From Burkholderiales bacterium (lineage in GTDB: Bacteria > Pseudomonadota > Gammaproteobacteria > Burkholderiales > Ga0077523), in assembly GCA_038324085.1 (NCBI GenBank), contig JBBQHP010000002.1, forward strand, positions 110,443-174,442: 64,000 nucleotides of DNA, read 5' to 3'. Shown here piece by piece: positions 38,506 to 45,643 of the stretch. Within the stretch, counting starts at the first letter, position 1. Each line of letters begins with the position of its first letter. A model generated the notes under the pieces. It was not told the origin of the DNA and ran no database searches. It was given only the letters and a program-made list of their open reading frames with translations. Position numbers and translations under genes: made by a program.

Positions 38506-40026
38506 GTGGCAAGGGTTGATTCTTCGACGGCCGATGAGGAGGGCGTGGTCACGGCCGTGCGCGGCAGCGTGGTCGATGCACGCTTCGAGGGGAGATTGCC
38601 GTCCATTCGTACGGTGCTCCATGCCGGCAGCGATCAGCAGATCGTGATCGAAGTGTTGACCCAGCGTGACGCGCGCCATGTACGCGGGATCGCCCTCACT
38701 TCCACCGAGGGCCTGGCGCGCGGCATGCCGGTGCGTAGTACGGGCATGCCATTGCGGGCACCTGTGGGCAAGACCATTCTTTCGCGCATGTTCGACGTGT
38801 TCGGCAATGCGATCGACGATGGCGGGCCGCTGAGCGAGGTCGAATGGCGTTCGGTGCATAGCGCACCGCCGGCGTTGGCGCGGCGCTCCACGAAAACCGA
38901 AGTGTTCGAGACCGGGATCAAGGTCATCGATGTGCTGACGCCGCTCGAACGGGGCGGCAAGGCCGGCCTGTTCGGGGGTGCAGGTGTGGGCAAGACCGTG
39001 CTGCTCACGGAGATGATCCACAACATGATCGACCATCAGGACGGTGTCAGCATCTTCTGCGGCATCGGCGAGCGTTGCCGCGAGGGTGCGGAGCTCCACG
39101 ATGCGATGCACGAAGCCGGCGTGTTGCCCAAGATGGTGATGATCTTCGCCCAGATGAACGAGCCGCCGGGTGCGCGTTTCCGGGTCGGCGACGCCGCCTT
39201 GACGATGGCCGAGTATTTTCGTGACGACGAGCATCGCGACGTGCTGCTGCTGGTGGACAACATCTTCCGTTTCATCCAGGCCGGCATGGAAGTGTCCAGC
39301 CTGATGGGACAGATGCCGTCGCGGCTGGGTTATCAGCCCACCATGGCCACGGAACTCGCCGGCCTGGAAGAGCGCATCGCCAATACCGATACCGGCGCGA
39401 TCACGTCCATCCAGGCGGTCTACGTGCCGGCCGATGATTTCACCGACCCGGCAGCGGTCCACACGTTCTCGCACCTCTCCGCGTCGATCGTGTTGTCCCG
39501 GCAACGTGCCAGCGAAGGCCTCTATCCGGCGATCGACCCGCTGCAGTCGAGCTCGCGGATGGCGACACCGGGTATCGTCGGCGCGCGCCACTATGCGCTC
39601 GCGCAGGAGATCCGCCATACGCTCGCGGAGTATGCGAAGCTCAAGGACATCATTGCCATGCTCGGTCTGGAGCAGTTGTCGCCGACCGATCGCAACGTCG
39701 TTGCCCGCGCGCGCCGTCTGGAACGCTTCCTGACGCAACCGTTCTTCACCACAGGCCAGTTCACCGGACTCGAAGGCAAGCTGGTGAGCCTGGACGACGC
39801 TCTGGACGGCTGTGAGCGAATCCTGCGGGACGAATTCAACGACCGGCCGGAGAGCGCGTTGTACATGATCGGCCCGATCGCCGAGGCCAAAGGCGGAAAG
39901 GACCCGCACCCGATGAAGGCGAAAACCGGCACTGATCGGGTGCAGGACAAGGGCGCCCGCCGTCCCTCGGCCACGCTTGCCTCGGCGCCCAACCCCGCGC
40001 CTCCAGCCTCGGCCGATGCACCTTAG
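38506..40026 (+). CDS. atpD: N-type F1 ATPase beta subunit
   Basis: GTG at 38506 with SD GGAGAG (alternative GTG at 38476). Walker [10 protein letters not shown], plus DNIFRF and DDFTDPA motifs. Carries an unusual roughly 45-aa Pro/Ala-rich C-terminal tail. Confidence 0.9.
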
Positions 40027-40405
40027 ATTGCTTCTTCCGTTTGAGGTACTGGTCGACGAGCCCGACGTGACCCGGCTCGTCGTCGAGACCTCCGAAGGCT
40101 CCTTCGGCCTGCTGCCGCACCGCCTCGATTGCGTGGCCGCACTGGTGCCCGGGATTCTCGGCTACCACCGCACCGCGCACGACGAGGTCTTCGTAGCGGT
40201 CGACGAGGGCGTGCTCGTCAAGACCGGGTCGGCGGTCGTCGTCTCGGTCCGTCGCGCGTTACGCGGACAGGATCTGGCCCGGCTGCGCGATGCGGTGATG
40301 CAGCAGTACCTGGCTGTCGACGAGCACGAGAAGTCCCTGCGGGCCGCAATGGCCCGGGTCGAAAGCGGTTTTCTGCGCCGCTTCGCGGGGTTCGAGCGTG
40401 AGTGA
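40016..40405 (+). CDS. atpC: N-type ATPase epsilon subunit
   Basis: ATG at 40016 overlapping the atpD end by 11 nt. [34 protein letters not shown] is an epsilon beta-sandwich pattern. Confidence 0.85.
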
Positions 40406-40745
40406 ACCACGGGCCCCGCAGGGCGGTCGGCATCCGAACCGCAGCCCCGGCCTGGCCGATCAGATCGGGGTAAAGGCCGCGCGCAAACTCCGCGCGAGAC
40501 GTGACGTCACGCCAGGGGTCTGGTTCGGATTGGGGATGATGGGGCTGGTGGGCTGGTCGGTGGTCGTCCCGACCTTGGCCGGCGCCGCGCTCGGCCTTTG
40601 GCTCGATGGACGCCACGTGGGAACGCATTCCTGGACCTTGGCCTTGCTGATGGCGGGCCTGACCCTCGGTTGTCTGAATGCCTGGCATTGGGTTACGCGC
40701 GAGGACCGGGCGATGCACGAGGAGCATGGCAACGATGATGACTGA
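40398..40745 (+). CDS. atpQ: AtpQ (AtpZ/AtpI-like, ATPase_gene1 family) small membrane protein of N-ATPase operons
   Basis: GTG start overlapping the atpC end. Two TM helices with GLVGWSVVVPTLAGAALGLWLD, typical of the putative F0F1-ATPase subunit family. Confidence 0.75.
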   Translation: MSEPRAPQGGRHPNRSPGLADQIGVKAARKLRARRDVTPGVWFGLGMMGLVGWSVVVPTLAGAALGLWLDGRHVGTHSWTLALLMAGLTLGCLNAWHWVTREDRAMHEEHGNDDD

Positions 40746-42947: not shown

Positions 42948-44587
42948 CGACACAGCCCGACTCCCTGCAGCAGACCTTCGATCGCGTATTCGACGCGCTC
43001 GAGCAGGCGCGCACGACCTTCGTGCCACGGTTGGTGGCGCGCGAGGTCGGAACCATCCTGTCGGTCGCGACCGGCATCGCCCGTGTCGGCGGTCTCCCCG
43101 GCATCGGGTTCGCTGAACTGATTCGTTTTCCCGGTGGCGTGGCCGGCATAGCCTTCAACGTCGACGCCGACGAGGTCGGCGTCGTGCTGCTCGGCGACCA
43201 TGCGCACCTGCAGGCTGGCGACACCGTCTCGCGCGAAGGCCGGGTCATGGATGTGGCGGTGGGGGAGGAATGGCTCGGGCGGGTCATCGACCCGCTCGGC
43301 AGGCCGCTCGACGGCCAGGGCACCGTCACCGGCAGCGCGCGCGTACCGATCGAGCGTCCGGCGCCCGCAATCCTGGATCGTGCACCGGTCGCCGAGCCGT
43401 TGCAGACAGGTCTCAAGGTGATCGACGCACTCATTCCCATCGGCCGCGGCCAGCGCGAACTGATCCTGGGAGATCGCCAGACGGGCAAGACGTCCATCGC
43501 CATCGATACCATCATCAATCAGCGCGGTCGCGACGTCGTGTGCGTCTATTGCGCGATCGGCCAGCGCGCATCGGCCGTGGCCAAGGCGGTGGCCGTATTG
43601 CGGGAACACGGCGCGCTGGCCCATACGGTGGTGATGGTGGCGGAGGGCAGCGATGCGCCCGGGTTGTCGTACATCGCCCCGTATGCCGCGACCAGCATCG
43701 CCGAGCATTTCATGGAGGGGGGGCGCGACGTCCTGATCGTCTATGACGATCTCACGCAGCATGCGCGCTCGTATCGCGAGCTCTCGCTGCTGCTCGGGCG
43801 ACCGCCGGGGCGCGAAGCGTTTCCCGGCGACATTTTCTACATTCATTCACGGCTGCTGGAGCGTGCCACGCACCTGAACGAGCGGCGCGGCGGCGGCTCG
43901 CTCACCGCGCTGCCCATCATCGAGACCGAAGCGCAGGTCATCTCGGCCTACATCCCGACCAACCTCATTTCCATCACCGACGGTCAGATCTATCTGTCAC
44001 CGACCTTGTTTCAGCTCGGCGTGCTGCCGGCGGTGGATGTGGGCAGATCGGTTTCGCGCGTGGGTGGGAAGGCGCAGCTCGCGGCATTCAGGGCGGTCGC
44101 GGGCGACCTCAAACTCGCTTATGCGCAATTCGAAGAACTCGAAAGCTTTGCCCGCTTCGGCGCCCATCTGGACGACGACACCCAGCGGTCCATCACGCAC
44201 GGGCAGCGCATCCGGGCCTGTCTGAAACAGCCTGAACTGGTCCCGGTTCCGGTACCGGCACAGATCGCCGTGGTCCTGGCGTTGACCGGCGGCCTGTTCG
44301 ACCCGATTCCGATCGATCAGATGATCGACGCGGAACGCGCCGTGCGGGAGGCCGCCGGGAAGTCCATCCCCGATGCCGTGACCGAGCGTCTCCTGAGCGC
44401 CGGCAAGCTGACCGCCGCCGACCGCGACACGATCGTCGCACTCGCCCGGGAGGCGATTGCCGCTTTTGTGCCGCCAGCCGATGCCGACGAGTCAGGATCG
44501 GGAAAACAGGACGGCCATGAATCCAAGGTCGCTCCGACGCTTGCCGCGCCCGGGACGCGCGACAGTGCAACGAGGACATCGAACTGA
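42944..44587 (+). CDS. atpA: N-type F1 ATPase alpha subunit
   Basis: TTG start overlapping the atpF TGA. Walker [18 protein letters not shown] and [12 protein letters not shown] motifs. Has a roughly 40-aa acidic/Ser-rich C-terminal tail. Confidence 0.92.
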
Positions 44588-44719
44588 TGCGTCCGAATCG
44601 CCGTTTCGGCCCGCTCTGTGATCGCATCGGCGGGGGTGAGCCGATCGGTCCGACAACCCTGCAGCACTGTCCGGCGATTGCGCGGCCGGTCGTGCACGCC
44701 TGAAGCACGCCCGATCAAG

Positions 44720-45643
44720 ATGCCGGACAGTCCCGCCAGCCTCCGCCGGAAGATCGGCAGTGCCGCGGACTTGCAGTCGGTCGTCCGCGCGATGAAGGCC
44801 CAGGCTGCTGCGAGCGTCGGACAGTACGAGCGCTCGGTGGCGGCCCTGGGCGATTACGCTCGCACGGTCGAACTCGGCCTTGCCGTCTGTTTTCGACAAG
44901 CGCAACCCGCACCCGCGCCGCCACCCCGGTATGCCGCCAAGGGTCACGGGAACGTCCGTGCCATCGTGTTCGGTTCCGATCAGGGACTCGTGGGACGCTT
45001 CAACGACATCGTTCTGGATCATGCCGCGCAATCGCTGGCGGGACTGTCCGACCATGCGCAGGTCTGGGCAGTCGGCGAGCGCGTGCACGACGGGCTCGTC
45101 GCCAGCGGGACACCCGTGCTCGGCGTCTTTGCCGTGCCGAACTCGGTGCAGGCAATCGCTGCGCTGGTCGGGCAGATCCTGGTGACAGTCATCGAAGACT
45201 CGGACTCGCCCGAATCGCCCGGCGCCACCGCCGAACTGCACCTGTTCCACAACCGACCGGTGTCGGGATCGGCCTACGAGCCCCTAGGCCAGCGACTTCT
45301 GCCGCTCGACGAGACCTGGCGTCGCAGTCTGACGCAGGTGCCCTGGCCCACCGGCATGCTGCCGGAGATTCTCGGAAGCGCTCCGGCGACACTGCGGGCG
45401 CTGATCCGCGAATACGTGTTCGTCTCGATCTTCCGCGCCTGCGCCGAGTCACTCGCGAGCGAGCATGCGAGTCGACTGGCGGCAATGGACCGCGCCGAAC
45501 GCAACATCGACAAGATGCTGGTCACGTTGCACGACAATTTTCAGCGTATGCGCCAGGGCAGGATCGACGAGGAACTCTCCGATGTGATTTCGGGCTTCAA
45601 GGCACTCCAGGCGGACGTCGAGACCCGGGACCATCGGCGATAA
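44720..45643 (+). CDS. atpG: N-type F1 ATPase gamma subunit
   Basis: ATG at 44720. [25 protein letters not shown] matches the gamma N-terminal helix, and ELSDVISGF matches the C-terminal helix. An upstream in-frame GTG at 44618 is less likely. Confidence 0.85.

Follow-up and report, generated by a model that had tools for sequence, protein, structure and literature searches.

What kind of ATPase does a nine-gene atp cluster from a Burkholderiales bacterium encode, which ion does that enzyme move, and in which direction? The cluster lies in a stretch of 64,000 nucleotides (nt), referred to here as the window (GenBank assembly GCA_038324085.1, contig JBBQHP010000002.1, positions 110,443 to 174,442 of the forward strand), in which nine co-directional open reading frames (ORFs) occupy 38476/38506-45643 on the plus strand. 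An earlier note, made by reading the letters of the window without database searches, had named the cluster an N-type ATPase (N-ATPase) operon with the order atpD-C-Q-R-B-E-F-A-G, a long b subunit and no delta gene, and had predicted Na+ coupling from the c subunit. Here, we examine gene content, ion site, probable mechanism and genomic surroundings in turn. Judged by its sequence, the locus is an N-type ATPase operon and not a canonical F-type one; it is complete and apparently functional, and we infer that it probably encodes an ATP-driven pump for the export of Na+.

Gene content and identity of the operon

Assigned one by one to families with Pfam and NCBIfam, the nine ORFs encode beta, epsilon, AtpQ, AtpR, a, c, a long b, alpha and gamma (atpDCQRBEFAG), so that the gene order and the long b read from the sequence in the earlier note are borne out. 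The N-type beta gene atpD (38506-40026) starts with GTG and carries GGAGAG 7 nt upstream, an alternative GTG start at 38476 being possible; it matches PF00006 and scores 853.7 bits with TIGR03305 (cut-off 752). The N-type epsilon gene atpC (40016-40405; ATG) shares its first 11 nt with the end of atpD and is recognised by TIGR03166 (157.9 bits; cut-off 100.1) and PF02823. Two small membrane proteins come next, and the family searches proposed for them gave the expected matches: atpQ, or 'gene 1' (40398-40745; GTG start), encodes a small two-helix protein found by PF09527 (ATPase_gene1; E=7.7e-14) and TIGR02230 (126.6 bits; cut-off 46.7), with two hydrophobic segments and a core conserved over 78 sequences, and atpR (40735-41076; ATG) encodes the hallmark membrane protein of N-ATPases, found by PF12966 (E=2.3e-22) and TIGR03165 (83.5 bits; cut-off 55.5). 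The N-type a subunit, which contributes the stator half-channels, is encoded by atpB (41066-41785; ATG, with the ribosome-binding site GGAGGAGGA upstream; TIGR03306, 375.7 bits, cut-off 302.1; PF00119), the 96-residue N-type c subunit by atpE (41817-42107; ATG with a ribosome-binding site; TIGR03322, 161.6 bits, cut-off 130.85; PF00137) and the long b by atpF (42111-42947; ATG; TIGR03321, 295.4 bits over the full length, cut-off 224.7; PF00430). The TTG start of the N-type alpha gene atpA (42944-44587; TIGR03324, 867.5 bits, cut-off 750.5) overlaps the atpF stop, and the operon closes with the 307-residue N-type gamma of atpG (44720-45643; ATG in an ORF open from 44618; TIGR03323, 365.5 bits, cut-off 282.35).

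All seven core subunits thus exceed the curated cut-offs of the NCBIfam 'alternate F1F0 ATPase' exception models at near full model coverage, AtpQ and AtpR exceed their own, and family matches of this strength lie far outside what chance would give. Start and stop codons overlap or are separated by 3 nt at six junctions, with gaps of 31 nt between a and c and of 132 nt between alpha and gamma; packing this close is as expected for one operon, in which most genes would be translationally coupled.

The arrangement agrees with that of the N-ATPases described by Dibrova, Galperin & Mulkidjanian (2010): the order atpDCQRBEFAG is identical, AtpQ (PF09527) stands in place of atpI, AtpR carries two conserved buried arginines, no delta gene is present, the long b has a delta-like C-terminus, and c has Glu in both helices together with the motif ESTxxY. 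Differences from the family are minor and comprise C-terminal tails, Thr for Glu/Asp in the sequence LEQLSPxDR and the absence of the neighbours that recur beside other members. The canonical operon atpIBEFHAGDC, for which that of Escherichia coli was compared, is matched neither in its order nor in its separate atpH and atpI genes. With E. coli delta and AtpI as queries, neither gene was found in the window, which likewise holds no OSCP-family ORF and no atp gene beyond the operon. The b subunit measures 278 residues against 156 in E. coli, and residues 178-243 in its C-terminal part are weakly OSCP-like (PF00213, E=3.2e-4, 21.3 bits, just below the cut-off of 22.3).

Comparison with relatives leads to the same assignment. 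With the a subunit as query, a scan limited to a single genome per species yielded 80 related loci, 71-79% identical in subunit a and spread over more than 10 phyla (Burkholderiales, Alpha-, Gamma- and Deltaproteobacteria, Acidobacteriota, Verrucomicrobiota, Planctomycetota, Chloroflexota, Nitrospirota and others), and the nine-gene order is the same in every one of sufficient length. Identity between the window and these loci is 74-87% for beta, 68-84% for alpha and 76-94% for c, versus about 50% for beta and 46-48% for alpha when the E. coli F-type subunits are compared. In a neighbour-joining tree of beta that takes alpha paralogues as its root and carries no bootstrap values, the window sequence falls within a tight N-type clade beside a Burkholderiales metagenome-assembled genome (MAG), E. 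coli beta lies in a separate clade, and a divergent copy from a Cereibacter plasmid occupies an adjacent branch. Diverse F-type betas for this tree were drawn from the 50%-identity representatives of a 1.8-billion-protein library, which gave mostly fragments and in which N-type betas fall into few clusters. The placement of alpha and beta outside the canonical F-type clade, as the earlier note had anticipated, therefore finds support in the tree of beta, in the identities and in the model scores of both subunits.

That the genes might instead belong to a housekeeping F1Fo ATP synthase, or to a decaying and non-functional copy, is exceedingly improbable. Generic F-type models do match (591 bits for atpD and 627 for atpA), but the N-type exception models score much higher (853.7 and 867.5 bits) and above their cut-offs, and the gene order, the presence of AtpQ and AtpR and the missing delta and AtpI are unlike an F-type operon. 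Decay, for its part, is contradicted by nine intact ORFs with near full model coverage and by the conservation of catalytic residues: beta keeps the P-loop Lys, the catalytic Glu and the Walker B Asp, alpha keeps the P-loop Lys and the Arg finger (VSRVGG), and subunit a keeps its essential Arg (equivalent to E. coli aR210, in LAVRLFGN) along with the Asn and Gln. With catalytic and stator residues conserved across nine complete ORFs, the N-type operon appears to be whole and functional. Intramembrane arginines had been claimed for both small membrane proteins, which holds for AtpR, where R77 (ORF numbering) is conserved in all 76 sequences and R107 in 74 of 76, both within hydrophobic segments, but not for AtpQ, which has no conserved intramembrane Arg.

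The locus is thus, as far as its sequence can tell, an ordinary new member of the well-described N-ATPase family. It is not a known plasmid copy, a candidate that was dropped when megablast against a plasmid collection returned only partial matches of 72-77% (to Croceicoccus and Cereibacter plasmids). Exact-sequence look-ups found no record of its c subunit, nor of the MtnA protein encoded in the window.

Two peculiarities of the subunits were also observed. The DELSEED loop of F-type beta is replaced family-wide by LEQLSP(E/D)DR, with LEQLSPTDR in the window (39670-39696, beta ORF residues 399-407), so that N-type betas lack most of the acidic residues for contact with gamma and epsilon. Beta, alpha and b, moreover, run on for about 30-45 residues past the ends of the N-type models, in low-complexity tails rich in Ala, Pro, Ser and Thr (beta 39892-40023, alpha 44456-44584, b 42852-42944, plus strand).

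The ion site of the c subunit

Counted from the ATG at 41817, the c subunit has E30 in helix 1 and E63, S64, T65 and Y68 in helix 2, the latter within Glu-Ser-Thr-Ala-Ile-Tyr. These residues had been aligned by eye with the Na+ site of Ilyobacter tartaricus, and MAFFT upholds both the residues and the alignment: against reference sequences verified with PDB entries 1YCE (I. tartaricus) and 3ZK1 (Fusobacterium nucleatum), the five align with Q32/E65/S66/T67/Y70 of the former and with E32/E65/S66/T67/Y70 of the latter. The I. tartaricus c11 ring, the reference Na+ site, belongs to an F-type synthase and shares E65/S66/T67/Y70 with the window, differing in Gln at 32 versus Glu. The c11 ring of F. 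nucleatum has a two-carboxylate Na+ site, and all five of its side chains are identical to those of the window; it differs in belonging to a canonical F-type synthase that uses the sodium-motive force and in overall c identity, which is 37%. The glycine packing motif in helix 1 also differs between the two, and the ring size may therefore differ; an estimate of ring size from the small-residue pattern of helix 1 was considered and rejected as unsupported.

The earlier note had singled out the full set of Na+ ligands with a second carboxylate as the distinctive feature of this operon. The set is indeed present, yet it is nothing special, being the majority state of N-ATPase c subunits: most carry a Glu midway along each helix as well as the full ligand set (Dibrova et al. 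2010, PMC2881411). In a search of 5.8 billion proteins, the 120 closest c homologues (83-96% identical) include at least 111 with the helix-1 Glu and 111 with ESTAIY. Among 79 c sequences from the related loci, 63 have ESTAIY, nine ESIAIY, three ESM or ESL and one ETM, with three unscorable, and every full-length one carries the helix-1 Glu except that of a single locus (L068), which has Gln. The ProAD survey counts 1,807 N-type enzymes in GTDB v202, of which 914 are predicted to be Na+-specific by the same motif rule (PMC11738941). To judge by these sequences, the two-Glu site of Na+ type is the norm of the family, as described in 2010, and not a peculiarity of the window operon.

Na+ coupling of the window enzyme is accordingly a prediction by rule, namely that a complete motif signifies Na+ (PMC2881411, PMC11738941). 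The F. nucleatum ring does bind Na+, with a second Glu that carries its proton constitutively and acts as a Gln would; rings with two Glu, however, use Na+ only if it greatly exceeds H+ (PMC3692424). In the main rival reading, the N-ATPase pumps protons in vivo, as reported for Burkholderia pseudomallei, its site binding H+ in a low-Na+ host. Every c-ring so far characterised has an intrinsic selectivity for H+ and turns to Na+ only at a large excess of that ion (PMC3692424), related operons occur commonly in MAGs of many phyla, outside marine taxa as well, and Dibrova et al. conceded proton pumping for low-sodium or acidic settings (PMC2881411).

Evidence for proton pumping also comes from B. 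pseudomallei, where NCD-4 labelling showed the N-type c17 ring to be H+-selective (PMC5376962), and the earlier note had set its Na+ prediction against this result. The enzyme comes from a betaproteobacterium, has the same type of operon and shares the second Glu in helix 1, but its site consists of Glu30, Glu61, Thr62, Met63 and Tyr66 (PMC5376962), so that helix 2 reads Glu-Thr-Met-x-x-Tyr versus Glu-Ser-Thr-x-x-Tyr in the window. A ring of the ETMxxY type is without the Thr ligand that holds the Na+-coordinating water, and for this reason the B. pseudomallei result is no counter-example for the subtype found in the window; the contrast drawn from it is weaker than had been implied. The ETM type is represented among the sequences compared by the plasmid copy of Cereibacter sphaeroides, which carries ETMAIY, has subunits 52-61% identical to those of the window (beta 52%, c 61%) and branches apart from the clade of the window. 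The only H+-selective N-type ring that has been studied, that of B. pseudomallei, is thus ETMxxY and not ESTxxY, and in the literature searched we found no direct measurement of ion specificity for the mainstream ESTxxY subtype. Given a complete E/ESTxxY set equal to the Na+-binding site of F. nucleatum, proton pumping seems rather unlikely, and Na+ is the preferred reading.

Much of this was known: the operon type, its mobility, the c subunit with two Glu and ESTxxY and the predicted Na+ export were published in 2010, and later cataloguing covers about 1,800 reference genomes. The locus carries little weight as a discovery, and its value lies partly in the earlier call, made from sequence alone, having proved accurate. 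Questions of ion specificity, of ring size and of what AtpQ and AtpR do could be answered with any convenient ESTxxY member, for example that of the window.

Proposed mechanism and direction of pumping

The operon encodes an F1-like head of alpha3-beta3-gamma-epsilon, a stator of a and the b/delta-like fusion, a c-ring rotor, and AtpQ and AtpR. In the proposed mechanism, hydrolysis of ATP in the head would rotate gamma-epsilon together with the c-ring past the Arg conserved in subunit a, driving one cation per c subunit out of the cytoplasm. As the side chains of the site are the same as in the Na+-binding ring of F. nucleatum, the transported ion would most likely be Na+ wherever Na+ far exceeds H+, with E30 presumably remaining protonated and acting like the Ilyobacter Gln, just as the second Glu does in F. 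nucleatum (PMC3692424). In line with the proposal of Dibrova et al., who paired the two buried arginines of AtpR with c-subunit glutamates, AtpR would probably use these arginines to escort or assemble the two-Glu c subunits (PMC2881411). Ion specificity, pumping direction and this chaperone-like role are all assigned here by analogy with the family. No PDB chain resembles AtpR or AtpQ, and it follows that no structure of an N-type holoenzyme appears to exist.

Synthesis of ATP would fall to another enzyme, of canonical F-type, assumed to be encoded elsewhere in the genome. N-ATPases have been reported always as second copies beside a primary F- or A-type ATP synthase, and when the N-ATPase operon of Methanosarcina acetivorans was deleted, ATP synthesis stayed intact (PMC2881411); for these reasons a pump is favoured over a synthase. 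The opposite view, that the enzyme is no dedicated pump but a reversible ATP synthase driven by Na+ or H+ under special conditions such as a low ion-motive force, can draw on the presence of all catalytic residues and of the whole rotor and stator set, on the large ring size of enzymes such as that with c17, which translocates 5.7 ions per ATP and would thermodynamically favour synthesis at low driving force, and on the N-type enzyme of Aphanothece halophytica, which is cited as a 'Na+-dependent F1F0-ATP synthase'. Besides the second-copy status and the M. acetivorans deletion, the family-wide change from DELSEED to LEQLSP(E/D)DR and the reduction of delta to a fusion with b argue for a functionally diverged enzyme, and we regard a synthase as a minor and quite improbable alternative.

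Several points nevertheless weigh against an ATP-driven Na+ pump. The intrinsic H+ selectivity of c-rings makes coupling dependent on the ratio of Na+ to H+ in the habitat (PMC3692424), and the organism looks, from the genes of the tricarboxylic acid (TCA) and methylcitrate cycles nearby, like an ordinary aerobic heterotroph; no salt-related genes were seen in the window. The only N-type ring measured, c17, has a high ratio of ions to ATP that, by analogy, would also suit synthesis at low driving force. The canonical F-type operon in the same genome is an assumption, and no biochemistry was found, in the literature searched, for any proteobacterial N-ATPase with ESTxxY. Export of Na+ at the expense of ATP is still the most likely function.

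Genomic context and related operons

The operon begins after a 222-nt gap that separates atpD from a divergent rhodanese-like gene. The gap contains a promoter-like site, CTGACC-17 nt-TAGAAT (38316-38344, plus strand), the only such site before atpD; it agrees with the consensus at 9 of 12 positions and is a weak sigma-70-like candidate only, two such sites occurring in the region versus 1.0 expected. About 10 nt downstream lies an imperfect inverted repeat, CGCGCTATGTTCGA / TCGTACAGAGCGCG (38354-38383), with 14-nt arms that are 86% complementary and a 2-nt spacer, which is a possible operator or a possible hairpin in the 5'-untranslated leader. No terminator-like site was found after atpG. 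Neither Rfam families nor tRNAs were detected in the whole window, and a permissive Rfam scan of the upstream region gave the same result, its single weak match (to a miRNA model, E=0.71) being dismissed as noise.

Around the operon, the window encodes aconitase, prpBCD, mdh, sdhA, gltA, sucAB, lpdA, prpE and an NAD-linked formate dehydrogenase, as well as tadA, a FabG-like reductase, mtnA, rseB, degP and lepA. The central-metabolism block acnA, prpD, prpC, prpB, mdh, sdhA, gltA, sucA, sucB, lpdA spans 5149-24235 and is followed by prpE (26105-28378) and by the subunits of NAD-dependent formate dehydrogenase (30114-34546); so dense a set of central-metabolism genes points to the core chromosome of an aerobic heterotroph, in this case an uncultured betaproteobacterium. 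The operon is uniform with its flanks in GC content (65-67%), and GC content at third codon positions (GC3), 0.78-0.83 in the seven operon ORFs scored (at least 100 codons), resembles that of the rest of the window. Between the formate dehydrogenase and rhodanese-like genes lie two minus-strand ORFs of 556 (35641-37311) and 208 amino acids (34500-35126), with a GC3 of about 0.8, which matched no NCBIfam model.

Positions 44637-48798 of the window are 98.5% identical in DNA to a 4.1-kb contig (JBDTTQ010000348.1; L083) of the MAG GCA_039930545.1, labelled 'Betaproteobacteria bacterium', which carries the same atpG-tadA-SDR-mtnA arrangement and the same 307-residue atpG call. By this measure the organism of the window has a same-species MAG in GenBank. 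The closest homologue of MtnA, 97% identical, derives from that same MAG, and the best match to the a subunit among species representatives is only 79% identical. The flanking genes of the window are shared by none of the 80 related loci, in keeping with what is known of this operon's lateral mobility.

Neighbours do recur among the related loci. Of the 53 loci whose sequence extends at least 3 kb upstream, 15, from several phyla, have a phosphoketolase gene (xfp) upstream of the operon and on its strand. A homologue of acetate kinase precedes it in five of these (L041, L074, L079, L052 and L063), giving ackA-xfp-atpDCQRBEFAG, and xfp stands without it in the others (L012, L017, L020, L022, L030, L033, L042, L050, L064 and L080). 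Genes of glycogen phosphorylase-like, PPK2, DUF2254 and STAS-like type also recur. A further apparent cluster of neighbours, 'MFS_4', was discarded, having arisen as an artefact when single-linkage clustering drew in shadow ORFs that overlap phosphoketolase. None of the recurrent neighbours is found in the window, where the operon is 'bare', and no paper combining phosphoketolase with N-ATPase was found in the literature searched.

The xfp, ackA, glycogen phosphorylase-like and PPK2 genes beside related operons hint that many N-ATPases are tied to a substrate-level supply of ATP, and suggest that ATP gained from stored polymers by substrate-level phosphorylation may be spent on ion export. It is a speculative and, we think, doubtful extension that N-ATPases, that of the window included, are perhaps not mainly devices for salt tolerance but the ion-pumping end of a mobile, respiration-free module for energising the membrane. 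The window copy would then be a stripped-down version of that module, and the pattern of neighbours in related loci is without direct bearing on it.

Otherwise colinear operons among the related loci are sometimes interrupted by inserts at the b-alpha or the alpha-gamma junction (L006 9855-13007, L071 10102-15127, L012 11615-12304, L066 11566-12255, L016 11345-12841, L026 6283-7446 and L054 12831-14033). The inserted genes encode a P-type cation ATPase with MgtC, two PAS histidine kinases, and proteins of the VIT1 family, DUF2254, baeRF family 3 and the AI-2E transporter type. One contig of a Desulfobacterales MAG (CAXXIG010000003.1) holds two N-ATPase operons about 43 kb apart (L015, 374265-390960; L016, 417886-434581), which are nearly equal in their identity to that of the window and differ in the sequence after alpha, where L016 carries a DUF2254 gene.

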